From: Nibricoccus sp.
GTDB lineage: Bacteria > Verrucomicrobiota > Verrucomicrobiia > Opitutales > Opitutaceae
Reading direction: 5' to 3'
Length of the DNA: 64,000 nucleotides
Assembly: GCA_047602425.1 (NCBI GenBank)
Contig: JASGHG010000001.1
Location: 1,472,001 to 1,536,000, forward strand
In this document: positions 41,118-63,106 of the stretch, piece by piece
Layout of the letters: every line of letters begins with the position of its first letter
Numbering within the stretch: the stretch's first letter is position 1
Program-made: the position numbers and the translations under genes
Notes under the pieces: generated by a model
The model's input: the letters and a program-made list of their open reading frames with translations, nothing else
What the model was told of the DNA's origin: nothing
The model's database searches: none

Positions 41118-41663
41118 TCAACCTTGGGGCGGTTTTACCGGTTCGGTAACGACTACCGTGCTTTCAACCGGCGAAGGAGCCTGACGACTTTCCACCAGAT
41201 TGGCCACCCGCTGCGCATAATATTTGCTGGTTTCGGAGGCGCGATTGTTCAGCGTCGCATGCAAACCGGCGTTCCATGCGAGGCCGATGTGGTAAGGCGT
41301 CACCTCCAGCTTGTTCCGCTCCAGCCCCCGCTTGATCCATTCGTAGTGGGCTTCGGCCACGATTTTCGCCTCGGCATTGTCCGCCGCGAGCGAGAAGGGT
41401 TTCTTTGTGTAAGCGTACCAAACGGTAGGTCTAAATTGGAACGGTCCTAGTTCCCCGCGCCGGCCGATGCGCGTGGAATTGTGGGGATTTTCCACGTCAT
41501 GGATCGCATCGAGCACCTCAGTGCGTTCCCACGCATGGGCGATCTGAGTCGATCCCAAAAGAGTCATGCCCGCCACAACCAACCGCCACAAACTGACAGC
41601 CCGACGTGAAAGAGAGAATGCACACAAACCAGCTCCGGATTGTGTCTGAGTGCTTGGTTTCAT
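41118..41663 (-). CDS. Small lysozyme/lytic-transglycosylase-like protein
   Basis: Signal-like N-terminus, then LDAIHDVEN...GRRGELGPFQF...W and LAWNAG, an SLT-like motif set. Confidence 0.7.
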   Translation of the reverse strand: MKPSTQTQSGAGLCAFSLSRRAVSLWRLVVAGMTLLGSTQIAHAWERTEVLDAIHDVENPHNSTRIGRRGELGPFQFRPTVWYAYTKKPFSLAADNAEAKIVAEAHYEWIKRGLERNKLEVTPYHIGLAWNAGLHATLNNRASETSKYYAQRVANLVESRQAPSPVESTVVVTEPVKPPQG

Positions 41664-41791
41664 AAGCGCCGCGCGGGTGGGCTGCCTTAAGACAAGTATC
41701 GACAACACCGGTTCTGGCAAGAACCGGGAAAATTTTTACAGCTTAGATGCAAACAGGATCGTCTCTCTCGACCGATACCCTGGCGCAAAGG

Positions 41792-43222
41792 CTATTTTGC
41801 CGCTTGGATCGCTTCGAAACGCTGGAGGAGTTCGACGTATTCCCACATCGGACCACGGACGCCTCGTCGGCGCAGTTTGTCCATCGTCACGAGGAAATCC
41901 GGCGGCGGATCGCCAATAATCCAATTGTGAGATTGCGTTCGAACCTGACTCAAACGCGCATAAACATCCTTCACCGTAAAACCGGGTGCGAGGTAGAACC
42001 GCGGATCGACAAGATAATCGCCGGGAACTTCCCCGTTCTTCTCGGGATTGATTTCCCGCCAAAGCGGCGTGCCGGGATAAACGCGCATGCCAATGGTCGC
42101 GAAATAATACGAGCCGGGCAGCGATTGCGCCCGGACAATCGTTTCCTCAAGCGTCTCCTTCGTTTCGCCGGGGCCGCCCACAATCAGGAAGTGACTGTAA
42201 TTAAGCTTCATGTCGTAGGCGAGGCGGCTGACGTCCTCGATTTCCTTGTAGCAAAAACTTTTCCCGTAGCGCTTGAGGACAGGATCGGAAAAACTATCGG
42301 AGCCAAATTCGACGTGGCGCAATCCTGCATCGCGCATCATCTCGAGAACCTCACGGGTGATCAGGCGGCTCGGGCGGAGAAAACATTCCCATTCGATGCC
42401 GAGCTTGGCGCGTATCAGCTCATTGCATACATCGCGCACGTGGTCCGGACGGGTGTTGAAGACGGAATCGACGATAAAGGTATATTTCACGCCGAGCTCG
42501 GCCATGCGCCGCAGTTCCGCCACGACTTCCGCGCCGGTGCGGTAACGACTGCGTTTGCCCTCAATCAATGGATAGGTACAATAACAACATTTGAGCGGAC
42601 AGCCGCGCTGGGTTTGGACGCCGGGTAGCGAGCCTTCGGCGAGATAGCTCTTCATGATTTCGGGATCATGATAGGGTTCGGCCGTGAAGACCGCGTCGGA
42701 AGGATTGCGCGGCAGATGCTTCGGCTGGCCCGAATTATCGCGATAGTGCAAGCCGCTGATGCCGTCAAAAGTCGAACCACTGATAATCGACTTGATCAGG
42801 CGGGGCAGCGTTTCCTCGCCTTCGCCTTCGATGCCGTAGTCCACCTTGGTCAGCTCGTACAACTCCTTTGGAAAAACGGAAAAACCGCTGCCGCCAAGAA
42901 TGAGCGTGGCTCGCGTCACTTCCCGCACCCGCTTGCAGCAGTCGAGCAATTCGTAGATGAAAGACTTGGGGTTATGGCATTGAACGTTGTCGATATTGCG
43001 CAACGTAAGCCCGATGAAGTTGGGTTTGTACGCCGCGATGCATTCCTCGAGCGTCCGCCCCGGAATGCGCGCGTCCCACGTCTTCGTATCCAATCCGTGA
43101 CTACGCAAGGCGCCCGCCACATAAGCCAGTCCGAGCGGGTAGACCGGATATGGCTGGTCGTACTTGTTCAGGTTTACCAACAAGACCCGGCTGCAGCCGG
43201 AAGTTTCATCGATGGAAATCAT
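41792..43222 (-). CDS. B12-binding radical SAM protein (lipid-biosynthesis type)
   Basis: PYPVYPLGLAYVAGAL and LRNIDN in the cobalamin domain, and QTQRGCPLKCCYCTY (CxxxCxxC). Confidence 0.92.
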   Translation of the reverse strand: MISIDETSGCSRVLLVNLNKYDQPYPVYPLGLAYVAGALRSHGLDTKTWDARIPGRTLEECIAAYKPNFIGLTLRNIDNVQCHNPKSFIYELLDCCKRVREVTRATLILGGSGFSVFPKELYELTKVDYGIEGEGEETLPRLIKSIISGSTFDGISGLHYRDNSGQPKHLPRNPSDAVFTAEPYHDPEIMKSYLAEGSLPGVQTQRGCPLKCCYCTYPLIEGKRSRYRTGAEVVAELRRMAELGVKYTFIVDSVFNTRPDHVRDVCNELIRAKLGIEWECFLRPSRLITREVLEMMRDAGLRHVEFGSDSFSDPVLKRYGKSFCYKEIEDVSRLAYDMKLNYSHFLIVGGPGETKETLEETIVRAQSLPGSYYFATIGMRVYPGTPLWREINPEKNGEVPGDYLVDPRFYLAPGFTVKDVYARLSQVRTQSHNWIIGDPPPDFLVTMDKLRRRGVRGPMWEYVELLQRFEAIQAAK

Positions 43223-43315
43223 GCGCGCGTCTCCTCTGTGAAATGGGCGACGACGTGAGCGGCAAGCGTGAAGACATTCATTGTTGGTGTAAAAAGCATG
43301 GATCCAAAAAGCTGA

Positions 43316-45688
43316 TTATTTTGCCCCACCCTCCCGGTTTTGTCCAATCGCCTCGCGGGAAAATGGCTCAAGCTCCACCACCAGCAGAGCGGTGACCACA
43401 ATCAGCGCGACCATCTGGCCAAGTGCCGAGATCACAGGGATATGGCTAAGCGCAAGTACGCCGAAGGAAGCCGCTGTCGTCATCGCGGAGAGCCGGATCG
43501 AAGGAGGCGGAAGATCGCCGCGCGCGGCATTTTCCGCCGAAAAGATCGCGTAATTGTGGCTCAGGCAGACGCCGAGAAACGCCCCGAGGAGGTGAAACAG
43601 ATTCAAGGTCTGGCCCGCCAGTCCCAAAAGCCCGAAGGCAAACAGGCAACTGCCGGCCGGCAGCGAAAAAATCAACAAGCCGCGCCGCAAGCCATAGACC
43701 ACAAAGACACTCAATCCCACCAATCCAAGTCCCACCGCGCTCAACCAAAGCGCCGACACGCGGTAGCGGCCGAAAAGGTGATTGAACGATTCCAGTTGTG
43801 CCGAGCTGACCGTGGCGAGCGTTGGCGGCGGTTCTGCTCCAGCCGGATGGTTCGTCAAGGTTGCGTACCAACTCGCCTTCGGACCGGCTTCCATCATCAG
43901 ACCGAGCGGGCCCGACAACACGCTTCCGAGTCCGGAAACCAATTCGTCATAAGCCGGACGTTTCTCACGAACCAATAATTCCCGCCACGCCCCAAAGAAC
44001 GGCTCGAAGGCGTCGGCCTCAAACCCTTGCGCGGCCAGTGAGGTCCGCAATGCCGATTCGAAATCCGCCAGCTTCCGCAAATTGTCGTCGAAATGCGCCC
44101 ACTGCTCCGGCTCGGGCAATACCGAACCGACAGACACCGCTGTGCTGCCGGGAAACGCCTGGGCGTGCCATGCGTGGAAGCGACTCAATGCCGCCCGCGC
44201 CTCAGCCGCAGAAGGCCCCCGCGTCAGATAGATCGATTGCGAATCGTTTTCTCCAAAGAGTGCATGAACTTCCTCCGCATTGGCCCGCAATTCCGGCGAG
44301 GAAATATCAAGATCGCGGATGTCGTCTCGCCAGTGCAGCCGCGCAATGCCCACCGCAACCACTAAACATGCCACCAACGCGGCCCAACGCAGCACGTTCT
44401 TTCGACCGGCTCCCGGGAGCCTTGTGTGAATCAGCGCGCGCGTCTCCCACCAAGTGTCCTTCGATTGGGCGTACCAAAGAAAAGCAGCTCCCAGCGCACA
44501 AAGCAGTCCCGCACTGACGAACACCCCGAGTTGCCTGATCAACGGCAGATCCGAAAACAGGAGTAACAAAAAGCCGGTGATGGCGGTCAGCGAACTTGCC
44601 AGCAGCGGCTTCAACAGTCGGCGAGCCTTTTCCAGTGGCGGTTCACCAGCTGCGCGCGGAGGTTGCAGAAAAAGATAAAAACCGTAGTCGACCGCCACGC
44701 CACCCAACAACGAACCGACGACAAAGACCAAAACATGCACGCGCGAAAATACGGTGGTGGTTACAATCCATGCGCCCAACAGCGAAAAAATCAGCACAGG
44801 TGCGAGATTCAAAGCCTTGTAGGGCCGTCGCACCCCGGCAAAACCGATCGCGAGCACCGCCACGAGCGAAAGCAGGTTTAGGCCTGACATTTCGCCTTCG
44901 ATCCGCCGACGGCTCGCCTCGGCGAACCGACTGATGGCGGACCAGCGAAGTTCAAATTTGCCCAGGGCCGCGGCGGCGGTTTCGGCGTCGGCCACCGCTT
45001 TGAAAACCGGCGCCTGCCCTTCTTCTTTCAGGGGTGACGCCGTCGTGCGTGCCCAGATTAATATATTGCTGCCGTCCTTCCCCGCCCCGGCCATGCCGGA
45101 AAATGCCTGCCATGGTTCGAGGGCGCGTGGCACGAGCAAAAGGGGATCGGAGGGAAGCATGTCCTGAAAAGCCATCGCCTCTGGCTTCGCCAGAAAGGCC
45201 GAAAGCTCGCTCGCCGTTTTTTCGGCGGCCCAGTGCGCGAAATCCGTCCGCCTTGGTCCGGTGTCGTATTCGGTTTTCCACGACGCCAGCTTCGCCGGAA
45301 GAAGCAAATCGAGGCGTTGATCGAAAATATGTTTTCCGACCGGTACAAAAGCCTGCGTGTCGCCGAGCCTCACGACTTCGGCAAACGCCGGCGAACCTCG
45401 CAAGGTCTCGATGAACTTGTCCGTCATCCGCTCACGAAGCGCCTTCGCCTCGCCACCGCTTTGTGTTTCCGAAAAACGAAGGACCAGCAGGACAACCCGG
45501 GCAATGCGATCGTTGGCCAGTTGCCTGACCAGCGCCAGTTCCGGCTCGCGCTCGTCGGCGGGAATCAGCTCAAGCACGTCCGTCGAAACCTTGCGATCAT
45601 AGTCAAACCGCCAGAACCAAAGACCTCCCGCCAGTACCAAAAAGGCGAGAACCAGACGTGCAACGATTTTATGACGAGGCGCAGACAT
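43316..45688 (-). CDS. MMPL family exporter (aryl-polyene-cluster type)
   Basis: Two TM bundles, GSLLGGVAVDYG, LPLIRQLGVF, SAMTTAASFG.L. Confidence 0.88.
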   Translation of the reverse strand: MSAPRHKIVARLVLAFLVLAGGLWFWRFDYDRKVSTDVLELIPADEREPELALVRQLANDRIARVVLLVLRFSETQSGGEAKALRERMTDKFIETLRGSPAFAEVVRLGDTQAFVPVGKHIFDQRLDLLLPAKLASWKTEYDTGPRRTDFAHWAAEKTASELSAFLAKPEAMAFQDMLPSDPLLLVPRALEPWQAFSGMAGAGKDGSNILIWARTTASPLKEEGQAPVFKAVADAETAAAALGKFELRWSAISRFAEASRRRIEGEMSGLNLLSLVAVLAIGFAGVRRPYKALNLAPVLIFSLLGAWIVTTTVFSRVHVLVFVVGSLLGGVAVDYGFYLFLQPPRAAGEPPLEKARRLLKPLLASSLTAITGFLLLLFSDLPLIRQLGVFVSAGLLCALGAAFLWYAQSKDTWWETRALIHTRLPGAGRKNVLRWAALVACLVVAVGIARLHWRDDIRDLDISSPELRANAEEVHALFGENDSQSIYLTRGPSAAEARAALSRFHAWHAQAFPGSTAVSVGSVLPEPEQWAHFDDNLRKLADFESALRTSLAAQGFEADAFEPFFGAWRELLVREKRPAYDELVSGLGSVLSGPLGLMMEAGPKASWYATLTNHPAGAEPPPTLATVSSAQLESFNHLFGRYRVSALWLSAVGLGLVGLSVFVVYGLRRGLLIFSLPAGSCLFAFGLLGLAGQTLNLFHLLGAFLGVCLSHNYAIFSAENAARGDLPPPSIRLSAMTTAASFGVLALSHIPVISALGQMVALIVVTALLVVELEPFSREAIGQNREGGAK

Positions 45689-45693
45689 GCGTC

Positions 45694-46335
45694 TTAGCGG
45701 AAATACGCCTTCTTTTCCTCGGGCGTGAATTCCATGCCCTGGCGCGTTTCGCCGATGAAAATTTCCACCCGTTGCATCGCCGAGCGGCGAAATTCGAGTT
45801 GTCGCATCATATTCCCGCTGCCCAAAGCCGTGATTCGCCCAAGCGTGCTCGCAAGTTGTGCATCACGCGGCACGAAATCCAGACGCCACTCGTCGCCTTC
45901 CCGCACGGCATAAACCTGAAAGGCCTGATCCAGCTTCTGCCAGTCGAAGTTTAGAATCGGAAGGAGCGCCGTGGTAGCAGCGGGGGAGTTGGGGTCTACG
46001 GGAATTTCCCGCTGATGGCTGTTCTGATCGCGCAGGAGCAAGCCACGGGAATCGATGACGATCGTCCTTTTCTCCGGATCGGTATAACCAAGACTCATAC
46101 CCAACTCTGGCGAAAGTCGCATCACGCCCTTGAGCACCACGGGGATTTTTTTAAAGGGAAACCAACGATGTTCGGTGAATTCGGATACCACCGAGCGGCG
46201 CGCGCCCAGCTCCGCGAAAAGCGGCAGCCATGCGGCGTCGTTTTTGCCCGCGACCAACTGCGGTCCCATTTCAGGAATCGCGGCCGCCTGCAAAACCAGC
46301 GCGGCAAAGAACAAAAAAATGGAAAATCGTTTCAT
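45694..46335 (-). CDS. LolA-like periplasmic carrier
   Basis: Signal peptide, FTEHR..PF...PV.L.G and WRLDFVPRD. Sits directly upstream of the MMPL gene. Confidence 0.8.
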   Translation of the reverse strand: MKRFSIFLFFAALVLQAAAIPEMGPQLVAGKNDAAWLPLFAELGARRSVVSEFTEHRWFPFKKIPVVLKGVMRLSPELGMSLGYTDPEKRTIVIDSRGLLLRDQNSHQREIPVDPNSPAATTALLPILNFDWQKLDQAFQVYAVREGDEWRLDFVPRDAQLASTLGRITALGSGNMMRQLEFRRSAMQRVEIFIGETRQGMEFTPEEKKAYFR

Positions 46336-47093
46336 GCGGTTTTACGGCGGAAGATCAGCCCAGCCCAGCGGAACAGCAACAGCTGTGTGATAAGTCGCGT
46401 GTGCAGCCAGATCATCCGCAGATTGTCGCGCAGGTAATGAAAATGCGAGATGCCGCCTTCCTCGCGGGAAAGGTAGCGACAGGTCGCAGGGACGTTGATC
46501 GTCGGCGTGCCAGCCCAGACCAGGCGAACGGCGACCTCCGGATCGAAATCGTAGCGACGAGCCCAACGCGTGGAGGAAAGCACGCTCGCAAGCGGGGCAA
46601 GGGGATAAACCCGGAAACCGAAGAGCGGGTCGGCGATCGCTTTGCCGAACGTTTCGAAATGCACCAAACCCACGCTGAGTTTGCGTCCCTGCAGCCGGAC
46701 CTGCGGCGCCTCGGGCCCAAAGACCGGCTGGCCGAGGACGAGCGCCTCCGGACTTTGTTGCGACATCTGCATGAATTCGGCGATGCGATCCGCCGGATGC
46801 TGGCCGTCGGCATCCATGACCAGCGCATGGGTAAAGCCCGCCGCCAGCGCTTCCTGCGCACCGGCAAGCACGGCCGCTCCTTTTCCGCCGTTCTTCGGCA
46901 AGCTGACAATGCGCAACCCCGGAGCGATCTCCTCCATTTCCTCAACCAATCGACCGCTGCCATCTGTGCTGCCATCGATGACAACCCAAACCGGTTGCCA
47001 GTGAACAAGCGCCTCGCGCACCGTCGCAGCGAGGCGTTCCGCCCCGGTGTTGTAGCTGGGAATCAGCACGAGATGGGTGGTCGAAGCGCTCAT
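46332..47093 (-). CDS. Glycosyltransferase family 2
   Basis: LIPSYN, VIDGSTDG, NGGKGAA, MDADGQH, GFRVYPL, RYDFDPE. Confidence 0.93.
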   Translation of the reverse strand: MSASTTHLVLIPSYNTGAERLAATVREALVHWQPVWVVIDGSTDGSGRLVEEMEEIAPGLRIVSLPKNGGKGAAVLAGAQEALAAGFTHALVMDADGQHPADRIAEFMQMSQQSPEALVLGQPVFGPEAPQVRLQGRKLSVGLVHFETFGKAIADPLFGFRVYPLAPLASVLSSTRWARRYDFDPEVAVRLVWAGTPTINVPATCRYLSREEGGISHFHYLRDNLRMIWLHTRLITQLLLFRWAGLIFRRKTA

Positions 47094-47842
47094 GCTGTTG
47101 CTGGAACGCGAAGCGTTTCCGAAATCCTTTTTTCGATTTCCGCCGTCAAAACGGAGGCGTGACGCTCTTCCACGTGCTCCCAACGACGATCGAGCGTGAT
47201 TTCCACGCGAATGGGCATCTCCGCCGGCACCTTCCACCAGGGGCGCCCGCGCGCAGTCGCCTCGGTCATCCGAATCAGAATCAATTGCACCGGCGCCCGC
47301 GATTGCGCTGCGATGATGGCAAAGCCCGGTTTAAAAGGCGCAGGCACGCCTCCCGGCTCAGTTCGCGTCCCTTCCGGAAAAATCAAAATGGAGCAACCCT
47401 GCGCCACCTTCTCCGAGGCAGCGCGAATCACATCGACCCCGGCGTCGCCCGAAACATATTCGGCCATGATGGCGGCGGGGCCGATCACCGGATTGCGCAT
47501 CAGACTGGGTTTGAAAATGCAGACGGCATTCGGCAGCCGGGCGAGGAGGAACGTGGCATCGATCAACGCGGGATGGTTCGCGATATAGACCGTACCGGGT
47601 TTGAGTGGTTCGTCAAAGCCATGCCAGCGCATCCGCACCGCGCGGCTCGCATGCAGCCACTTCAGCCAAAAATCGAACAGTATTCGGATCGCAGCCCGCA
47701 CGCCATTGCCGCGGGCATGCCGGTTCGGCAGCGGCAACAGGCAAATGCAGGCCAGGTTCAACCCCAGCCCGACCGCTCCAAAGAAAAACCAGGAAAGATA
47801 ATAAATAACGACGTAATAGGCGCGTTTGCCCCGGGTGATCAT
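47090..47842 (-). CDS. PlsC-like lysophospholipid acyltransferase
   Basis: ANHPALID (HX4D) and LIFPEGTRT. Confidence 0.92.
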   Translation of the reverse strand: MITRGKRAYYVVIYYLSWFFFGAVGLGLNLACICLLPLPNRHARGNGVRAAIRILFDFWLKWLHASRAVRMRWHGFDEPLKPGTVYIANHPALIDATFLLARLPNAVCIFKPSLMRNPVIGPAAIMAEYVSGDAGVDVIRAASEKVAQGCSILIFPEGTRTEPGGVPAPFKPGFAIIAAQSRAPVQLILIRMTEATARGRPWWKVPAEMPIRVEITLDRRWEHVEERHASVLTAEIEKRISETLRVPATA

Positions 47843-48765
47843 GCGGCCACCTCCGGCTTCGTCGTCGGGTTGAGCGGAATGAAATTAAACCAATGGTACG
47901 GAGACACCCGCAACAGCTCCTCCAATTGCGTGAGGAAGCCTTGAAAATGCGCCCTCGCCCGTTGCAAACCGGCCTCGCGCGATTCGCCCGCCGATGGCTC
48001 GAAACGCGGCGAGGCATGCAGCCAGGAGTGTCCCGGTCCGGGCAAGCCAACCGATAGAATAACCGGACGGTTAAAGATGAACGCCAGGTGATAAATCGTA
48101 AACGGGAACCAGCGTTTAGCTCCAAGAAATTGGAAGGCTTCGGTCTTGGCCGAGAAATCCACCCGGTCGCATTGCAGCGCGATGGCGGCGTCGCTGCGCG
48201 CGGCATCTTTGAGCGCAAAAAGCATTTCCGACGGCTGGTTGATCCAGATGAATTCCAACCCTTTCCCAAAACGCGCGGAGAGACGCTCGGTGTCGTGTGA
48301 ATTGCCCACACGCATACGGACAAGATAAATCCGCCCCTTGTTCATGCCGCCAAGTTGGAAACCCAACAGATCCGACACACCGACGTGAAACGTTCCCAGC
48401 AGCGCAGGTCCGCCCTGCGTGTACCACTCGCGAAACGCATCCGCGCCGGCCGCAAATTGGCACGGATAAGGCCGGCCGTTGGCCACCCGCAGACGTTGCA
48501 TCAGCGCTTCCTCGAAAGCGAAAAAATGCCGGCAGACCTCCAGCCACGAGGGGTCGCGACCGAGCATGACTCGCAAATATTCGCGCGAATGTCGGCGCTG
48601 CGCCGGCATGCCCGCGACGGCAACCGCCGTACCGATTGCTCGCAAGGGCCGAAAAATCATTTCGGGCAAAATCAGATCGGTGATGCGCAGAAACTGATAG
48701 CCCCAGCCCGGGCCGGGATTGCGCGCACCGTGACTTTCCTGCGGCAGTTCCTGCGCCGGCGTCAT
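47839..48765 (-). CDS. LpxL-like acyltransferase
   Basis: GTFHVGVSD, ALQCDR, FLG....FP and C-terminal PYHWFNF. Confidence 0.8.
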   Translation of the reverse strand: MTPAQELPQESHGARNPGPGWGYQFLRITDLILPEMIFRPLRAIGTAVAVAGMPAQRRHSREYLRVMLGRDPSWLEVCRHFFAFEEALMQRLRVANGRPYPCQFAAGADAFREWYTQGGPALLGTFHVGVSDLLGFQLGGMNKGRIYLVRMRVGNSHDTERLSARFGKGLEFIWINQPSEMLFALKDAARSDAAIALQCDRVDFSAKTEAFQFLGAKRWFPFTIYHLAFIFNRPVILSVGLPGPGHSWLHASPRFEPSAGESREAGLQRARAHFQGFLTQLEELLRVSPYHWFNFIPLNPTTKPEVAA

Positions 48766-49424
48766 GATTTGCTCCATACGAGCTGGAGCTTCAGACCCGG
48801 CAGCATTGGGCCATTGTAATTGTTGCGGCTTTCCAGCAAGCCGAACCATTCGTAAAGTGACAACCTGCCCACGGAGTCGGAATCCTCGACCACCGCGACC
48901 CGCCCCACGGAGCCCGCCGCATCGTCGCGCCCCAGCCCGAGTGCAAATGCAAATGTGCGCCCGCTCGCCACCCCTCGTTCGCGCAGCCAGGTGCCACGTT
49001 CCTCGCCGCCGCAAAACAAGACGCGCGCAGCGGGGTTTATCAAAGCGGCTACAAGCGCATGCCCGGCCAGGCCGCCAGCACCGGCAAAAGGGAAAAGTTC
49101 CGGCACGCCGCGCTGACGTCCGATGAGCCCCTGCTGCACGCCGCTGGGATGAATCGAGGTTTGAAACATCGTCGGGCTGGCGCTGGGAAAGCTTTCGAGA
49201 AAAGCCTCGAGCGCGCGACTCTCGCCGTATTCCGACGCGTACACCACGGCGTCGGCCGATGATGGATCGAGTGCGCCCAGAACCGAACCCGTCAACATAC
49301 CCAACTGGGTCATGCGGCGGGCCGCGCCGGCCGGGAAACGGGACTTCAAGCGTTCGCGGGTGGCCGCCGGCTCCTCCAGCCCGGGCGATTCGGTAAAAAC
49401 AGCCTGGATCGTGCGTTCAATCAT
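48762..49424 (-). CDS. Beta-ketoacyl synthase chain-length-factor-like protein
   Basis: ARRMT..G, VVYASEYGE, SPTMFQTSIH. No catalytic Cys motif. Confidence 0.8.
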   Translation of the reverse strand: MIERTIQAVFTESPGLEEPAATRERLKSRFPAGAARRMTQLGMLTGSVLGALDPSSADAVVYASEYGESRALEAFLESFPSASPTMFQTSIHPSGVQQGLIGRQRGVPELFPFAGAGGLAGHALVAALINPAARVLFCGGEERGTWLRERGVASGRTFAFALGLGRDDAAGSVGRVAVVEDSDSVGRLSLYEWFGLLESRNNYNGPMLPGLKLQLVWSKS

Positions 49425-50532
49425 GGGCGAGGAGAAGGGCCGCGTGCGCGCCCCCGAAGGCGTTGCTCGCGCAAAGCACGGCATCGAATTCACGGTTTGA
49501 AAATGGTTCGGTTGCGACGTTCTTCGTGAAGGCCGGCGCCGCCGTGCCGACCGTGCCCGGACTGCGGCCGGCGCGGATGGACTCAACGGCGATAGCGAGT
49601 TCCACTAATCCGCAGCTGCCCAACGTGTGACCGAGGCTGCCCTTCCAGCCGACGAGCGGCGCGTCAGGGAAAGCCGCAGCGAGACGGTTCGATTCAAGGC
49701 GCCCCGCTTCCAGCGTGCCAGTGCCGTGGCCTTTGATCCAAAGGCGCCGGCCGTTAGCTTTTTCCAAAATTGGCGCGAGGCAGGCCTGAAAGCCCGCGCC
49801 ATCCGGCTGATTGGCCGTGAAGTGAAACATCTCGTTGTGCAGGTTCTGCGCGAGGATTTTGAAACCCTGGCCTTCGCGCGATAACACCGCGTAAGCCGCG
49901 CCGTCGCCGAGTCCGATCGAGCCGGTGGCACGATCCATGTAAGGCGCGGGAAAATCGGTGTTGAGAATTTTCAGCGCGTGAAAACCGCCGGCCACGAATG
50001 GACTGATAAAATCGAACGTCGCCACCAGCGCTTCGTCCGCGAGCCCGGAACTTACGATCCGCGCGGCATGCACGAGGCCGAGATGAGCCGAAACGCAGGC
50101 GTGGGAAAAAATTGCGAAGTTGTCGCCCCACCCCTGTTCACGCCTCAACCAATCGACACACGCCTGAGGGGAACCAAAGGCCAGATGCCCTTCATCTCCC
50201 GTTTTGCGAAAAGCGTGCAGACTGCCCACCCCAAAATTGCTGCTCGTGACGAAAATCGGGCGGCGCGCACTGCCCCAGCGATGCCCGGCCACGGGAGCGA
50301 AAAGTTTTTTCACCGCCGCACCCCAGGCCGGTGGATTGGTTTCATCCATCGCTCGACCGGGCAGCAACGCCACGGGCACGAGATCGCCGCCATCCACACC
50401 TGCCACCGGGACGGGTTTCAACGCTTTGTCACCGCGCAAAAGCGCCGCGCAGGTCGCGGACGCATCGCCAAATGGAGTAAGGCAACCGCAGTCGGTGACT
50501 TTGACGGCGTTGGAATCTGCCGGAAAAGGCAT
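49417..50532 (-). CDS. Beta-ketoacyl-ACP synthase (divergent)
   Basis: C-H-H triad SHACVSA, GHGTGT, KGSLGHTLG, plus NAFGG. Confidence 0.88.
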   Translation of the reverse strand: MPFPADSNAVKVTDCGCLTPFGDASATCAALLRGDKALKPVPVAGVDGGDLVPVALLPGRAMDETNPPAWGAAVKKLFAPVAGHRWGSARRPIFVTSSNFGVGSLHAFRKTGDEGHLAFGSPQACVDWLRREQGWGDNFAIFSHACVSAHLGLVHAARIVSSGLADEALVATFDFISPFVAGGFHALKILNTDFPAPYMDRATGSIGLGDGAAYAVLSREGQGFKILAQNLHNEMFHFTANQPDGAGFQACLAPILEKANGRRLWIKGHGTGTLEAGRLESNRLAAAFPDAPLVGWKGSLGHTLGSCGLVELAIAVESIRAGRSPGTVGTAAPAFTKNVATEPFSNREFDAVLCASNAFGGAHAALLLAHD

Positions 50533-50544
50533 GAGGGGTTAAAA

Positions 50545-50820
50545 TCAGGACGGCAGTCGTGACGGATCGGCACGCTGACGAATAAAAGCTGCAAGACCCG
50601 CCACGCTCGACAGCGCCTGTTTCGATTCTTCGCTGCTGCCGATTTTAATGCCGAACTCCTTTTCGAGTTTCACCACGAGCTCAAGTGCATCAATGGAATC
50701 GAGCGCAAGGCCGGTGCCAATCAATGGCTCCGCGTCCTTAATTTCCTCGGGTTTGACCCCTTCAAGTCGAAGGGTTTCAACAATGATGTGTTTCAAGCGG
50801 TTTGTGAGGGGGTCGGCCAT
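50545..50820 (-). CDS. Acyl carrier protein (aryl-polyene type)
   Basis: GLALDSIDALELVVKLEKEFG. Confidence 0.95.
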   Translation of the reverse strand: MADPLTNRLKHIIVETLRLEGVKPEEIKDAEPLIGTGLALDSIDALELVVKLEKEFGIKIGSSEESKQALSSVAGLAAFIRQRADPSRLPS

Positions 50821-50987
50821 ACGAAAAAGTGTCCTTTAGTGAGGCGGCTAGCCCGGTGTGCCGCAAGCCCGGAACTTGCCCTTTTAAAAAATGCGCTCGC
50901 GGAGCCACTTCTGCGGAACCGCAACGTGAGTCAGGAGATATTCCGAGGCTTTGAGCGCCGGCCCGGACCTCAAGGCGGTTCGCAGGT

Positions 50988-52271
50988 TTAAGCCACGGTC
51001 TTCAAAACGTGGCAAACATTGCTGCCACCAAAGCCGCTGCTGTTGTTCAAAACAACATGCGGTCGCACCGCCTCCGTGGCGCGCGGCAGGTTCAGTCCCG
51101 CGCAAGACTCGTCGGGTGTGACCAGGTGCGGATTGCCCGGAATATAACCTTCCTTCATCGCCAATGCGCAAAAGGCCGCCTCCATTGCGCCCGCCAGCGA
51201 AAGCGGATGACCGGTGAGGGCCTTCGTGCTGCTGATGCGGGGCGTCGCGCCTGCGCCGTCAAAAAGCGTCTTCAACGCGATGGCTTCCGCCCGGTCGCCG
51301 ACCGGCGTGGAAGTGCCGTGGGCGTTGACATAGTCGATATCGGCTGGTTTTACCCCGGCGTCGGCCAGGGCGCGGCTCATTGCGCGATGCAAACCCGCAC
51401 CGGCAGGATGGGACATCGCCACGCTGTGTCCGTCGGCCGCCTGTCCCCAACCTGCGACTTCCGCATAAACGGGGGCGCCGCGCGCGGCAGCGAGCGAGGC
51501 TTCTTCGAGAATCATCACAACCGAACCACCTGCACCGACAAAACCGTCCCGCGCCACATCGAAGGGCCTGGAAGCCTTGCCCGGATCGCTTTGCGCCGAA
51601 AGGGCGCGCATCGCGGCGAAGGGCAGCAGTGTCTCCGCGTTGAGCTCCTCTGCGCCCACTACGATGATGCGCTTGAGACGGCCGAGGCGAATCTCGTCAC
51701 AGCCATAACCAATCGCATGGCTGGCGGAGGCGCAGGCCGAGACAAAACCGCAAACGGCGCCGGTGATATGGAAGTGCGCCGCGAGATTGAAGTTCAAGGT
51801 GCCCGCGATCGAACTGACCACGCCCATCGGGTTCCCACGTTCGCCCTTCACGGCATGCATTTGCGCCAGATTGTTATACATCAACATGGCCGAACCGGCA
51901 GATGCGCAAAAAATTCCCGTCTGGTCGTCGTTGGCGATATCCTCTGGTTTAAGACCGGCGTCGGCCAGTGCCTGGGTCAGCGCGCAAAAAGCGTAAACAC
52001 CGTGCGGAGCCATCCCACGCAACGTTTCGCGCGGCAGATCGTAGCGCGCCGGCCAGGTCCAGTCCCGGGGATTCGGACTGTCGACGTTGAAGTCCTTGAC
52101 CGTTCCCGCGACTTTTACCGGGATCGCGGGGTTTCCCAAAAACTCCACGTTCGCGAGGCCGTGGCGCCCCGCGCGCAAGCTGGCATCGACCGACGCGCGG
52201 TCGTTTCCGATCGGCGTGATGAAACCCAGGCCGGTGATGAGGACGCGGCGGCCGCCGGAAATGGAAGACAT
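50988..52271 (-). CDS. Beta-ketoacyl-ACP synthase (FabB/FabF-like)
   Basis: SACASASHAIG, SRPFD..RDGFV, YVNAHGTST, STKALTGH, NSSGFGG.N. Confidence 0.93.
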   Translation of the reverse strand: MSSISGGRRVLITGLGFITPIGNDRASVDASLRAGRHGLANVEFLGNPAIPVKVAGTVKDFNVDSPNPRDWTWPARYDLPRETLRGMAPHGVYAFCALTQALADAGLKPEDIANDDQTGIFCASAGSAMLMYNNLAQMHAVKGERGNPMGVVSSIAGTLNFNLAAHFHITGAVCGFVSACASASHAIGYGCDEIRLGRLKRIIVVGAEELNAETLLPFAAMRALSAQSDPGKASRPFDVARDGFVGAGGSVVMILEEASLAAARGAPVYAEVAGWGQAADGHSVAMSHPAGAGLHRAMSRALADAGVKPADIDYVNAHGTSTPVGDRAEAIALKTLFDGAGATPRISSTKALTGHPLSLAGAMEAAFCALAMKEGYIPGNPHLVTPDESCAGLNLPRATEAVRPHVVLNNSSGFGGSNVCHVLKTVA

Positions 52272-52636
52272 CAGGCGGAAGGTTTATTCTCGGTCAGCTT
52301 CTTGGTGACGAAACCGCGCAGCTCGCCGATGGTGCGCACCGACATGAGTTCGGTGTTCTCGATCCGGACTTTGAACAGATCCTCGAAGAAAAAAACCGTT
52401 TCAGCCACCGCCAGAGAATCGTAACCGAGATCCTCCATCAACTTCATCTCGTCCTTGATTTCGATATTGGTGGCCCCGAGGTTGCGCTTCGGCATGAAAT
52501 CACGCACGGCCGCCAGCACCACAATTCGCAGAGCTTCCGGGTCGCCGGTGGTGCGAAAACGCTCATAAGCATCGCGAGCCTCAGCGGGGTATCGGGCCAA
52601 TTGGGAGGGGGAAGCAGGGAGATTTTCGAAGGACAT
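52271..52636 (-). CDS. Acyl carrier protein with an N-terminal extension (121 aa)
   Basis: EDLGYDSLAVAE...FEDLF and VRTIGEL. Confidence 0.88.
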   Translation of the reverse strand: MSFENLPASPSQLARYPAEARDAYERFRTTGDPEALRIVVLAAVRDFMPKRNLGATNIEIKDEMKLMEDLGYDSLAVAETVFFFEDLFKVRIENTELMSVRTIGELRGFVTKKLTENKPSA

Positions 52637-52769
52637 CTGCCATGAGCAAAGGGAACCTGCGTCCGGGCTCAAGCCTTCGCTATGCTCATTTTTTGCTGAA
52701 AGTGTTAAAAGTTGGTCCGTCGCGATTTTTCTCGCACCGCGCCCTGCGGCCCAAAAACCTCTGCCCTCC

Positions 52770-54089
52770 ATGTCGGAGACGCTCCACGACTTCTGGCTGG
52801 CCAACGTCCGGCAAGCTCCCCACGCCCTCGCCTTGATTGAGGGTGAAAGCGGCCGCATGTGGACGCGCGCCGAACTTCAGCAAGCCGCCAACGCCTGGTT
52901 GCAAACACTGCCCGACCAACCCGCCCTCGCCCGCCGTCGCGTGGCACTCGCCGAGCCGAATGGCCCCAGCTGGCTGACCGCATTCATCGGACTCCTCCAA
53001 GCGGGCGCCGTGATCGTGCCGCTCGATCCAGCCGAACCAGCCGAAGCGCGAAATGCCACCGCCAATGCCGCAGGCGCTAGTTGGATCTGGGAAATGGGTC
53101 AGCTCCGTCCGCTTAAACGCTACGCTCCGGGACGTCGGAAAGACCTCTGCCTGGTCAAACTGACCAGCGGCAGCACCGGCACGCCGCGTGCCTTGGTCTT
53201 TACTCATGCGCAAATGGCCGCGGATGGACGCCAAGTTTGTTCGTCGATGGGCATTCGCCCCGACGATTTGAACCTCGGGATCATCCCCTTTGGCCATTCG
53301 TATGGCTTGGGCAACCTCATCGTGCCGCTCCTCGTTCTAGGCACGCCAGTCGTGACTGCCGCCAGCCCCTTGCCCGCCGCTCTTGCTGCGGATTGCGCCA
53401 GATGGAAACCCACGGTTTTTCCCGCGGTGCCCATGCTGCTCCGGGCGCTCACGCTCACCGGAGTCGAACCTTCTGCCATCGCCAGCCTGCGACTCATCAT
53501 CTCCGCCGGGGCGCCATTGCCCCCCGATGTCGCAACGGCGTTTGCCCGGCATTTCGGCAAACGCATTCATTCTTTCTATGGCTCCAGCGAGACCGGCGGC
53601 ATCACATTTGATCGAACTGGCGAAGCCGCGCTCGATGGTCGCAGCGTGGGCACTCCAATGGATGGCGTGCGCCTGCAATTCCGCCGCGGCGGACGCTTCC
53701 AAGTCGTCAGCAAAGCCGTCATGGGAAAAGGCCACCACTCGCCACCGGATCGCGCAGAATTGAATGACAAAGGCGAACTGGTTCTCCTCGGCCGAACCGG
53801 CCGAACCGCCAAAATCGCCGGCCGCCGGGTCGATCTTGGCGAAATCGAAAAACTCCTTCGCACCGTGCCCGGCGTGACCGATGCCTTTGCCATGCCCCAC
53901 CCGTCGCGGCCCGATGCCCTCGCCGCCGCCATTGCGGGCACAACTGAAGCCTCCGTCGTCCGCCAATCGCTCCGCCTTCGCGTTGCCCTTTGGAAAATTC
54001 CCGATCGCTTAGTCGTGTTACCCGAACTGCCGCGCACCAGTCGTGGAAAAGTGGATCGGAAAAAATTGGCACAGCTGCTCGCGGGTTGA
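52770..54089 (+). CDS. AMP-dependent acyl/aryl ligase (adenylate-forming)
   Basis: LTSGSTGTPR, FGHSYG, FYGSSETGG, LGR...AKIAGRRV, LPRTSRGK. Confidence 0.92.
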   Translation: MSETLHDFWLANVRQAPHALALIEGESGRMWTRAELQQAANAWLQTLPDQPALARRRVALAEPNGPSWLTAFIGLLQAGAVIVPLDPAEPAEARNATANAAGASWIWEMGQLRPLKRYAPGRRKDLCLVKLTSGSTGTPRALVFTHAQMAADGRQVCSSMGIRPDDLNLGIIPFGHSYGLGNLIVPLLVLGTPVVTAASPLPAALAADCARWKPTVFPAVPMLLRALTLTGVEPSAIASLRLIISAGAPLPPDVATAFARHFGKRIHSFYGSSETGGITFDRTGEAALDGRSVGTPMDGVRLQFRRGGRFQVVSKAVMGKGHHSPPDRAELNDKGELVLLGRTGRTAKIAGRRVDLGEIEKLLRTVPGVTDAFAMPHPSRPDALAAAIAGTTEASVVRQSLRLRVALWKIPDRLVVLPELPRTSRGKVDRKKLAQLLAG

Positions 54090-54123
54090 TGGCCGTACCC
54101 GGGACTCGCCGAATTACAGACCT

Positions 54124-55020
54124 TTAACCAGTCCGCACGCCCATCAACGTCGCTTCGATTTCCAAGGTGAGCTCCGCGCGGCAAATATCCGAACGCAAAT
54201 AGCTCACCCGGTCCGTGGGCAACAATAACGTTTGCTCGAGCGCCGTTTTGATCTGCGCGAGTTCGTTGGCCCTGCGAATGTAGACTTTGAAATGCCGCTC
54301 GCCACCCCGTTTCGCACCGAGATTGTCGTCCAGGCCACAAGCCTTCGAAATCAGCCTCAAATTACGCACCGTGCGCTCGATCTGACCGGCGGTATCATCC
54401 GGCGCGACGGTCTCGTGGCCTTCGATTGCGGCCGTGCCCGAGATAAACACGTCCGCCGAACCATTCGCCATCGGCACAAGCGAAGCCCGGGAAAAACTCG
54501 GCGGACGGGGGCCATGTTTTTTCGGGTATTTGTAGGCGGAGACTTGTTCTGGATTTTCGAAATGCCGGGGCTCGGTGTCACAAGCTGCAAAAACGACGGT
54601 TAATTCGTCATCTTCCGTGCCCACCGCCGACGCCGACGGCAAACGACGCTCAAAACCGGCGCCAAATGTTTTCTCGAACGCCAACGAGCGTCCGTGACAA
54701 AACGCGCGGTAGTTTTCCAGTCCTGCGGAATCCGGTTCATTAATGCGTGGCACGTAATGCCAGACGCGGCAGAGATGCAGTTTTTCGAGCGCCAAAAACA
54801 AATTTGCATAAAGCCGGTCGGTGGCCTGCTCCAGTCCATCGGCGATGGAAACCGCAATCCGACCGACTCGCCAGGGCCCAGCCTGTTGGAGCTCGAAATT
54901 GCCCACCGTTCCAGCGGGTTTGGCTTCACGAAAGAGCGTCTCCTCTTTTTCGCCAGCGAGCACGGGCAAACCGACTGCGCGGCGCGGTTTGATGGTAAGA
55001 GCTGGTTCGAGGATATACAT
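54124..55020 (-). CDS. FkbO/Hyg5/XanB2 family chorismatase
   Basis: RVWHYVPRIN, ENYRAFC.GR, PSASAVG, ENPEQVSAY.YP..HGPRPPSFSRA, FISGTAAI.GHET, DICRAEL.LEIE. Confidence 0.88.
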   Translation of the reverse strand: MYILEPALTIKPRRAVGLPVLAGEKEETLFREAKPAGTVGNFELQQAGPWRVGRIAVSIADGLEQATDRLYANLFLALEKLHLCRVWHYVPRINEPDSAGLENYRAFCHGRSLAFEKTFGAGFERRLPSASAVGTEDDELTVVFAACDTEPRHFENPEQVSAYKYPKKHGPRPPSFSRASLVPMANGSADVFISGTAAIEGHETVAPDDTAGQIERTVRNLRLISKACGLDDNLGAKRGGERHFKVYIRRANELAQIKTALEQTLLLPTDRVSYLRSDICRAELTLEIEATLMGVRTG

Positions 55021-55112
55021 GGACCGCATTTTCTCTGCGGAAGTGTTGCCAGAGCTTCAAGCTTCGTTCGCTCGCCGCAAGCGCTTTTCTGCGCCGCGGA
55101 AGGGAGGCTTCG

Positions 55113-55751
55113 TTAAGGCTTGATCCGCCAGAGAATAAAGTCTGCCACCGCCCGCTTGGGAGCCGGGCCGAAATCGTGCCTGGCACCGGCCTTCGCGAAC
55201 ATCGTCACCGCGTTGTCCTCCGCGTCCATTCCCAGCCCGGGCTGGCTCACGTCGTTGGCTACGATCCAATCGAGTTTTTTTTCTGTGAGTTTTCGCTGTG
55301 CGTAGATTTCAACGTCACGCGTCTCCGCCGCAAAACCGACGACCGTCTGTTGCGGTGTCTTGGTTGCCGCAAGCGTTTTCAAAATATCGATCGTTGGCTC
55401 CAAATCCAACGTGAGCCCGCCGGTGGTCTTTTTCGTTTTCTCGGCCGAGCGAAAACGTGGCTTGTAATCCGAGACTGCCGCCACCGCGATGAACACATCG
55501 CAACCGCCAAAAAGCGGGAGGCACGCCTCGTACATTTCCTGCGCCGTGACCACGCGGGTGAGACGCACGCCCGTGGGCGCGGCCAGCGAGACCGGTCCGC
55601 TAACCAAATCGACCAACCAACCCCTTGCTACGCCAGCCGCAGCCAGAGCGTAGCCCATTTTGCCACTCGAACCATTGCTAATGAACCGCACAGGATCCAA
55701 AAACTCGCGTGTCGGGCCGGCGGTGATGAGGCAGCGGATTGGTTGGGGCAT
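55113..55751 (-). CDS. coaB: Stand-alone phosphopantothenate--cysteine ligase
   Basis: [44 protein letters not shown]. Confidence 0.93.
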
Positions 55752-55834
55752 ATATCGGTCATGACAACTTCCCTTCCTTTTGTCCACCTATCGATAAATC
55801 GTCCGCACTACACTTTGGATGTACCATTATGTTA

Positions 55835-62374: not shown

Positions 62375-62938
62375 TCACACCTTCGGCTTCGCCAGCATCT
62401 TTTCCGCCCGCTCGACGATGCCTTCGACGGGCCAGAGACGGCCAATGCCTTCGTAACCGCAGGCGAGCATGCCTTCCTCGGGGCCGATGAATTCAACTCC
62501 CCTCCCTTGCAGCGTGGACACGTTGGCCACGGTCGCTGGGTGAAGCCACATTTTGCCGTTCATCGCCGGGGCGATCAGAATCGGCGCGCGGCAAACGAGG
62601 TGCAATGAACTCAAAAAATCCGGCGCCAGCCCATGAGCGAATTGCGCGATGACGTCCGCTGTCGCGGGCGCGACGAGCAACAAATCGGCTCTGTCCGCCA
62701 GATCGACGTGACCCGGCTGCCAGCCACCTTGGCCTTCGCTCCACTGATCCGCCGCAACCGGCTGGCGGGCGAGTGTTTGAAGCGTGAGCGGCGTGATGAA
62801 TTTTTGCGCCGCAGCCGTCATCACAGGGAAAACCTCCGCGCCGCGTTTGCGCAGCTGGCTGACGAGATCGGCGGCTTTGTAGGCCGCGATCGAACCGGTC
62901 ACACCGAGGACGATTTTCTTTCCGGAGAGGGAGGACAT
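62375..62938 (-). CDS. coaC: Stand-alone phosphopantothenoylcysteine decarboxylase
   Basis: LGVTGSIAAYK, HVDLA, VAPATA, APAMN..MW, GMLACGYEG.GRL. Confidence 0.93.
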   Translation of the reverse strand: MSSLSGKKIVLGVTGSIAAYKAADLVSQLRKRGAEVFPVMTAAAQKFITPLTLQTLARQPVAADQWSEGQGGWQPGHVDLADRADLLLVAPATADVIAQFAHGLAPDFLSSLHLVCRAPILIAPAMNGKMWLHPATVANVSTLQGRGVEFIGPEEGMLACGYEGIGRLWPVEGIVERAEKMLAKPKV

Positions 62939-63106
62939 GTCGGGAACTAACCAATTCCCCCGCCCGCTCGCAAGCGTTGAAAGCGGAGAGAGTAAACCCA
63001 CCAGCTGCAGAAAGCCCTGGGTGCAACGACTTGACTCAAGACGCGTCCGTTCCGATCCGGCGCATTGAGGTCAATGCGCTCCATCTCAGCAGGCGCGCCC
63101 TGACGG

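Follow-up and report, generated by a model that had tools for sequence, protein, structure and literature searches.

A putative aryl-polyene-type lipid cluster of Nibricoccus sp. with a TIGR04072 radical SAM enzyme and without ketoreductase or dehydratase genes of its own

Comparison with described aryl polyene clusters

The closest described systems to the locus analyzed here are the apeA-R clusters for aryl polyenes (APE) and APE lipids (APEL) of Escherichia coli CFT073, Xenorhabdus doucetiae and Acinetobacter baumannii, whose gene roles and core list (Fig. 1a) are given in bioRxiv 10.1101/2020.12.19.423268, as well as the xanthomonadin (pig) and arcuflavin (arc) clusters of Xanthomonas and Azoarcus, which encode their own reductase (FabG3/ArcH) and dehydratases. 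Here we describe 13 intact open reading frames (ORFs) at positions 41792-55029 of a 64,000-nt stretch (the window) from the genome of a Nibricoccus sp. of the family Opitutaceae, order Opitutales (G000, 5.16 Mb, 99.97% complete; G000:C1 coordinates are those of the whole contig of the same genome). They appear to encode an aryl-polyene-type pathway and include neither a ketoreductase (KR) nor a dehydratase (DH). The ORF limits are those of a first-pass annotation made from the sequence alone, and the functions assigned there match Pfam/NCBIfam or homologue profiles.

Judged from its genes, the cluster seems to work like the APE/xanthomonadin lipid pathway (bioRxiv 10.1101/2020.12.19.423268; parts of PMC3949708, PMC8253772 and PMC8358021). 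In common with the APE/APEL clusters it has two acyl carrier proteins (ACPs), a pair of ketosynthase (KS) and chain-length factor (CLF), a second, FabB-like KS, an aryl-ACP ligase, PlsC-type and GT2/LpxL-type transferases, a LolA-like carrier and an MMPL exporter, and with the pig and arc clusters, as described in part of PMC3949708, it shares a chorismatase and an AMP ligase, a KS/CLF pair, a glycosyltransferase (GT), acyltransferases, LolA and an exporter. The likeness proposed in the first-pass annotation is thus borne out by matches to E. coli ApeD, ApeE, ApeF, ApeH, ApeJ, ApeM, ApeO and ApeR and to the ApeO and ApeC structures. In contrast to the APE/APEL systems, identities are low (22-49%), ApeJ is split into two genes, the cluster carries its own chorismatase and lacks ApeK, the whole genome lacks ApeQ, ApeI, ApeP, ApeB, ApeG, ApeN and ApeA, and a B12 enzyme stands in place of the class I methyltransferase. 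The canonical APE chromophore sits on a GalNAc-phosphoglycerol lipid, whereas the Opitutaceae cluster is known from its genes alone. Among the canonical ape core, the KS pair, ApeC, two ACPs and ApeM were found and ApeQ and ApeI/ApeP were not; without the canonical KR and DH the locus was not filed as a canonical APE member.

The distribution of the cluster was followed with its ApeO-like ketosynthase (KS2) as marker gene in a set of 61 genomes, comprising this genome, 36 others of the family and 24 from other families of the order. KS2 matches were found in 26 of them (this genome, 21 of the 36 other Opitutaceae and four of the 24 from other families), and in an even sample of the phylum in 23 of 301 genomes, all Opitutales. 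Confined to this order and present there in many genomes, KS2 marks an Opitutales-specific cluster type rather than a one-off, and the core is read as an Opitutales-specific branch of the APE/xanthomonadin lipid clusters. Among the 36 family genomes the KR-less type outnumbered the canonical type by 21 to 1. Many genera retain the KR-less core, with identities of 45-85%; the gene order is the same in another Nibricoccus sp. record (L042), with a radical SAM enzyme 85% identical, while the cluster is fragmented or scattered in G003, G011, G013 and G019. No published study of the KR-less cluster type of Opitutales was found in a search of mostly open-access literature.

The first-pass annotation had reported no KR, DH or halogenase in the cluster, and this held well beyond it. 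Profiles for ApeI, ApeP, FabZ and short-chain dehydrogenase/reductase (SDR) detected no SDR or hot-dog domain in window positions 30001-64000, and no orthologue of ApeQ, ApeI, ApeP, ApeB-like proteins or halogenases was found in whole genome G000 (the ApeI/ApeP search was run once without a positive control and later with one). The ApeQ family TIGR01831 exceeded its cut-off in none of the 26 KS2-positive genomes and in two of the 61 (G008 and G038), both without KS2; the G008 locus is a canonical ape cluster and serves as positive control. Similarly, 43 of 44 KS2 loci, examined in genomes or records of which many were partial 20-kb stretches, gave no match to the SDR profile, which did match the canonical control clusters L041, L066 and L146. 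The single match (L145), at a distance of about 3 kb from a broken-up cluster, has no orthologue in G000 (best 33%) and was discarded as a candidate for a dedicated KR. Hot-dog profiles matched none of the 31 Opitutaceae loci but six of the 13 others, where ApeI-like and ApeP-like genes lie inside the KR-less cluster. The missing DH is thus a family trait of Opitutaceae, and the missing KR is conserved across the cluster type. As dedicated dehydratases act on beta-hydroxy compounds, ketoreduction in the sister-family genomes would have to come from outside the cluster.

A cluster-specific SDR encoded elsewhere was sought by comparing seven genomes, and no G000 SDR was common to the four cluster-positive ones yet missing from the three negative ones (SDR matches whose loci were compared: in positive genomes, 9/9, 21/22, 9/9 and 11/11; in negative genomes, 10/11, 10/11 and 10/15). 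The G000 SDRs present in all four positive genomes were FabG and one other, both also found in cluster-negative genomes, with FabG present in all seven.

Genes of the predicted scaffold

The starter unit would be supplied by a chorismatase of the FkbO/Hyg5/XanB2 family (54124..55029, minus strand; PF21168), whose top PDB match is Hyg5 (5AG3, E 9e-37). Aligned to Hyg5, it keeps the equivalents of G240, C327 and E334 and has Ala at G173. Gly173 is one of three Hyg5 marker residues given in PMC7170507, and two of the three are matched here, in a comparison that held no XanB2 sequence. These residues appear to exclude the FkbO type, and the enzyme probably makes 3- and/or 4-hydroxybenzoate. The AMP-forming aryl-acid ligase (52770..54089, plus strand; PF00501), assigned the XanA2/ArcT/ApeH role, shares 24% identity with E. 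coli ApeH and has benzoate-CoA ligases among its top PDB matches.

The remaining genes discussed here are all encoded on the minus strand. ACP1 (52271..52633; PP-binding domain, ApeF-like role, with a lineage-specific N-terminal helical extension) is 29% identical to ApeF and 30% to the ACP part of a fusion protein, ACP-FabZ, that is encoded at another locus of G000. The FabB-like ketosynthase KS1 (50988..52271; ApeR role) has FabB as its top PDB match and is 56% identical to a paralogue at G000:5153075-5154325 and 32% to E. coli ApeR; in a quick KS tree built without FabB, KS1 and its paralogues formed one clade with 100% support beside ApeR. Several cluster-bearing relatives lack a separate KS1, which is dispensable there. 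ACP2 (50545..50820), the ApeE-like starter carrier, is 49% identical to E. coli ApeE, and KS2 (49417..50532) is 29% identical to E. coli ApeO and finds ApeO (6QSP_A) as its top PDB match. The adjoining CLF (48762..49424, with position 49424 as its most likely start) gives little or no direct Pfam signal, while a profile of 11 homologues matches only the ApeC chains 6QSP_B and 7F28_A in the PDB. The predicted KS2:CLF complex scored 0.91 against 0.00 for the best control; at least 94% of contacts were shared between runs, and the partner pLDDT was 84 or more. The score mark applied is reached by 51 of 78 solved pairs and two of 108 mismatched pairs. Since the ApeO:ApeC complex has already been solved, this result shows likeness only and may reflect the known structure.

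Genes for lipid attachment and export follow. The LpxL-like acyltransferase (47839..48765), corresponding to the C-terminal half of ApeJ, which it matches weakly, gives little or no direct Pfam signal, although PF03279 matches five of its 11 homologues and H127 and D132 are invariant among them. The PlsC/ApeD-like lysophospholipid acyltransferase (47090..47842; PF01553) is 29% identical to ApeD and has HxxxxD and EGTR motifs, and the GT2 glycosyltransferase (46332..47093; PF00535) corresponds to the N-terminal half of ApeJ, with 39% identity to residues 1-235. The periplasmic carrier with the ApeL role (45694..46335) was assigned from two weak LolA matches (LolA_3, E 5e-4; flexirubin LolA2, LolA2_flexi, E 2e-4). 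The MMPL/RND exporter with the ApeM role (43316..45688; TIGR00921, E 2e-12) is the single ApeM match in the whole genome (E 9e-18, 22% identity), its direct RND/MMPL match being weak. Catalytic residues are in place throughout: Cys-His-His in both KSs, the phosphopantetheine Ser in both ACPs and the His-Asp motif in both acyltransferases.

The eight genes from ACP2 to the MMPL exporter overlap or are separated by gaps of at most 12 bp. The ligase gene diverges from that of ACP1 across a 136-bp gap and converges with that of the chorismatase across 34 bp. Lying on the opposite strand, it rules out one operon, and at least three transcription units are needed; promoter and terminator scans of the locus gave signal at chance level. 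The presence of the 13 genes given in the first-pass annotation stands.

Source of reduction and nature of the product

We give about even chances to a reading in which the cluster makes a methylated hydroxyphenyl-polyene glycolipid by an aryl-polyene-type type II polyketide synthase (PKS) that has no KR or DH of its own and is served in trans by the housekeeping FabG and a FabZ-type enzyme. Hydroxybenzoate from the chorismatase would be loaded onto ACP2 by the ligase and elongated by the predicted KS2:CLF heterodimer, both partners of which are homologous to the APE enzymes. The KS1/ACP1 module, itself dispensable, would assist and might in addition form a second acyl chain, a role suggested for ApeF. 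Reduction of every beta-keto intermediate would fall to FabG, left by exclusion, and dehydration, likewise by exclusion, to one of the three FabZ/FabA-type domains of the genome (LpxC-FabZ, the ACP-FabZ fusion or an ole-linked FabZ). By analogy with the APEL model, PlsC, GT2 and the LpxL-like enzyme would build and acylate a glycosylated glycerophospholipid, which the MMPL exporter and LolA would bring to the outer membrane. The TIGR04072 enzyme would transfer the methyl group of methylcobalamin to the electron-rich aryl head in the manner of TsrM and so fill the job of the UbiE-like methyltransferase of sister clusters. An observation outside the window concerns one of the FabZ candidates: at G000:C1:4480725-4484164, FabZ-like and enoyl-reductase-like genes lie upstream of two further genes, which we take to resemble oleA and oleB.

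Several points weigh against this reading. The product lipid is itself predicted from genes. ApeQ of A. baumannii could not be replaced by FabG in vitro, Leu185 (Phe in FabG) being implicated (PMC8041823, in part), and in Xanthomonas FabG3 could not be replaced by FabG1 in vivo (PMC6859482, in part). An ApeQ-like Leu in FabG was considered and rejected, as all seven Opitutaceae FabGs compared, including that of G000, have Phe at this site, so that the enzyme itself shows no sign of adaptation. Rariglobus hedericola, with a KS2 homologue of 68% identity, and Geminisphaera colitermitum are colourless despite an aryl-polyene region (PMC12193912, in part). In favour of a polyene, the same source describes three relatives as yellow, Nibricoccus aquaticus, Horticoccus luteus and Congregicoccus parvus; antiSMASH calls a single aryl-polyene region and no terpene region in each of them, and no aryl-polyene region in the colourless Opitutus terrae. 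The cluster type of the yellow strains is known from the antiSMASH label only. APE clusters can stay silent in culture (bioRxiv 10.1101/2020.12.19.423268). Borrowing of reduction from primary fatty acid synthase (FAS), as the first-pass annotation had suggested, is the leading option in view of the KR-less clusters that keep ApeI/ApeP, yet the published failures of FabG count against it.

The alternative that survives best, though we consider it unlikely, is that an enoyl reductase is borrowed along with KR and DH, giving not a polyene but a colourless omega-(hydroxyphenyl)alkanoyl glycolipid that is saturated or partly so. The precedent for borrowing is undecylprodigiosin, where, as here, a dedicated KS and ACP (RedP/RedQ) form the module and intermediates on RedQ are processed by the primary FabG, FabA and FabI (bioRxiv 10.1101/2025.08.11.669332, in part); unlike the present cluster, RedP/RedQ come without aryl starter, CLF or glycolipid attachment, and their product is saturated. 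As the enoyl reductase acts on RedQ, a saturated product has to be taken seriously here, and it would suit the colourless, KS2-bearing R. hedericola. ACP2 has Glu where ApeE has Lys52, as do 42 of 43 ACP2-like ORFs, and Glu at this site is AcpP-like according to part of PMC12624758; the residue is a weak marker, however, since KR-bearing clusters also have an acidic residue there. The ApeO:ApeC-like character of the KS:CLF pair, the ApeI/ApeP retained in sister clusters and, in the part of the literature consulted, the yellow colour of several named relatives with aryl-polyene calls argue for a polyene.

Less likely again is a dedicated KR/DH pair at a distance, namely the SDR and the FabZ fused to ACP, both encoded in the paralogous operon G000:5152241-5155509. 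This conserved operon is headed by the ACP-FabZ fusion, whose ACP is the paralogue of ACP1, and includes the KS with 56% identity to KS1, the SDR and glycosyltransferases; cluster genomes without a separate KS1 could use it directly. Among 20 stretches around KS1 paralogues, all nine Opitutaceae stretches that held the operon had the SDR, whereas none of the seven from other families did, even though the clusters there are also KR-less; the remaining four were further ACP1-KS1 duplicates. The SDR moreover has no orthologue in cluster-positive G048, is not FabG/ApeQ-like and occurs in cluster-negative genomes. The ACP-fused FabZ is a good DH candidate and as such already part of the preferred reading with housekeeping FabG. 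In its own right, the wider operon G000:C1:5148416-5155509, also seen in L107-L114, L116-L122 and L126, is a candidate second lipid pathway conserved in Opitutales, with ACP-FabZ, a FabB-like KS, the SDR (Opitutaceae only), a diglucosyl-diacylglycerol-synthase-like glycosyltransferase and two more GT-like genes. The ACP1-KS1 duplicates (L115:2856-9001, L124:2472-9001, L123 and L125) form a separate clade and in L115 and L124 lead a different gene set.

Placed behind both of these is a pathway without any reduction, in which the aryl starter would be extended one to a few times to a beta-keto, pyrone or resorcinol-type unit on a lipid and modified by B12-dependent methylation or cyclisation. 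The absence of a KR from 43 of 44 loci and of a DH from all 31 Opitutaceae loci would fit, as would the report, in the part of the published work consulted, that FabG cannot serve ApeE-bound chains. The ApeI/ApeP-like dehydratases of the KR-less sister-family clusters would then lack a substrate, however, and the non-polyene scaffold entertained in the first-pass annotation is disfavoured on this ground; the cluster has no recognisable gene for a cyclase or aromatase, and the B12 enzyme, missing from 15 of 26 cluster genomes, cannot define the scaffold. That the locus is a decaying APE remnant making no product, as its fragmented or scattered state in four genomes and the lack of halogenases in this one might suggest, is very improbable given intact frames and catalytic motifs, the tight coupling of eight genes and the retention of the KR-less core across many genera.

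The TIGR04072 enzyme and accessory genes

The last gene of the cluster (41792..43222, minus strand) encodes a cobalamin-dependent enzyme of the radical S-adenosylmethionine (SAM) fold and predicted head-group methylase, scoring 363.6 bits against TIGR04072 (rSAM_ladder_B12; cut-off 360) and 51 bits against the B12-binding domain PF02310 (cut-off 32.1). Its CxxxCxxC motif (C208/C212/C215) is invariant in all 55 homologues. TsrM, the tryptophan C2-methyltransferase (PDB 6WTE), is the nearest solved protein both by profile (E 3e-56, the next match 3e-27) and by fold (TM-score 0.76 for a model with pLDDT 72.7 and pTM 0.70), and BzaD and TsrM are the next NCBIfam families after TIGR04072. The methyl acceptor is an sp2 carbon in TsrM and, by proposal, also in BzaD, according to the 2026 review PMC12931638. 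The TsrM residue Arg69, a lower-axial residue linked to the methylation of a weak sp2 nucleophile (PMC9692996), aligns with R75, which is invariant in the 55 homologues. In contrast to TsrM and BzaD, the enzyme belongs to TIGR04072, scores 135 against a cut-off of 500 for the TsrM family TIGR04428, is about 100 residues shorter, lies in a lipid cluster and has Val254 at the site of the cluster-ligating Glu273.

TIGR04072 was found in 11 of the 61 genomes, all KS2-positive, usually directly after the MMPL gene (unlinked in G029), and a UbiE/MenG-like methyltransferase, which lies in other copies of the cluster, in 13. Among the 26 KS2-positive genomes, 11 had TIGR04072, 12 the UbiE-like methyltransferase and none both; in the three with neither, flavin halogenases lie at the cluster. 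G034 (84% complete), the thirteenth genome with the methyltransferase, carries the chorismatase and gave no KS2 match. An uncorrected Fisher test gave p 4.9e-5, which overstates the case by ignoring kinship; with three to four independent changes on the KS2 tree and p = 1 in a paired test, the alternation is suggestive only. From the TsrM-like profile, the modelled fold and R75, methylation by the TIGR04072 enzyme is favoured over cyclisation, the other possibility raised in the first-pass annotation. The assignment to head-group methylation has counterevidence besides the outcome of the paired test: the Glu273 site is Glu in none of the 55 homologues, so that radical chemistry has to be reckoned with, and xanthomonadin-type pigments are usually O-methylated (PMC3949708, in part), so that the target atom of a displaced methyltransferase may be a different one.

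The first-pass annotation had singled out the B12 enzyme as distinctive; its presence is confirmed, but it belongs to a catalogued family and accompanies fewer than half of the cluster genomes. Outside Opitutales, TIGR04072 lies in KR/DH-bearing clusters, for example in Ferrimonas kyonanensis (L066), an Elusimicrobia record and Limisphaerales-type records and is thus accessory, with no compensation for the missing KR. Members of the family occur in lipid or APE-like clusters of several phyla, including the Kuenenia/Desulfotalea type; in contrast to the ladderane lineage, the present organism is non-anammox and the enzyme alternates with a UbiE-like methyltransferase. The ladderane link consists of the family name and the proposal by Rattray et al. 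of a TIGR04072-type enzyme as a cyclisation candidate (PMC2649909, in part), and 'Ladderane' is listed among other/unknown transformations in the part of PMC12931638 consulted. The genome uses cobalamin, as it encodes a B12-dependent MetH, split in two ORFs about 3 kb apart (G000:C1:3303918-3310566).

A second B12 radical SAM gene (G000:2928693-2930255) was present in five of the 61 genomes, all TIGR04072-positive, adjoins the cluster in three of these five and is apparently reduced to a fragment in L029. In other Verrucomicrobiota, six records (L053, L055, L056, L061, L062 and L069) hold a cluster of another kind, which combines TIGR04072 and at most two additional B12 radical SAM genes with a KS, its own KR, an ACP and a ligase, and mostly a FabZ-like DH and MMPL.

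Like the arc/dar loci, relatives of the Opitutaceae cluster carry flavin halogenases, polysaccharide deacetylase or DarAB. Two flavin-dependent halogenase-like genes lie in the cluster of L006, L011, L015, L019, L024, L127, L129, L132, L133, L134 and L139, which is what a dihalogenated xanthomonadin-like product would need; the L019 pair has WxWxIP-like motifs, presumably those of such enzymes. A DarA/DarB resorcinol module stands head to head with ACP2 in three genomes of the same genus (L022:9516-15130, L029:1-1549 and L144:7431-12600), with a BtrH-like gene beside it in L022 and L144, and suggests an arcuflavin-like hybrid. Searches of G000 found neither DarA nor a halogenase and only a FabH-level match for DarB. 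Genes for VTT-domain, polysaccharide deacetylase and PAP2 proteins adjoin the cluster in relatives, while their G000 homologues (41-49% identity) are scattered (C1:2880556-2881401, 3110192-3111025 and 3556003-3556767). Next to the window locus, the radical SAM gene is followed, as in L001 and L029, by a gene (41118-41720, minus strand) for a putative secreted protein that weakly matches RpfC/lysozyme-like proteins (E 0.009). On the other side, CoaBC is encoded in two pieces: the genes for its DFP and flavoprotein domains (55113-55787 and 62375-63001, minus strand) are about 6.6 kb from each other, and the interval carries lpxB, an ABC transporter and a class II tRNA synthetase.

Scaffold and B12 family alike are already catalogued; what is new is the order-wide loss of a KR step reported to be irreplaceable. 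More tentatively, and with less confidence than for the polyene glycolipid itself, we propose that a KR-less PKS, in Opitutaceae also DH-less, is wired to primary FAS in a way that fails in proteobacteria and that TIGR04072 is a TsrM-like phenol C-methylase interchangeable with the UbiE-like enzyme. The exchange of these two enzymes on one conserved scaffold would be a natural swap that could give TIGR04072 its first function, and as the family is a candidate in the ladderane pathway, a methylase role would argue against a ring-forming one. If this is true, the widespread aryl polyene pathway can dispense with two steps for which dedicated enzymes have been considered necessary, and an order common in soil and freshwater would hold a family of envelope lipids that are methylated, halogenated or resorcinol-linked.

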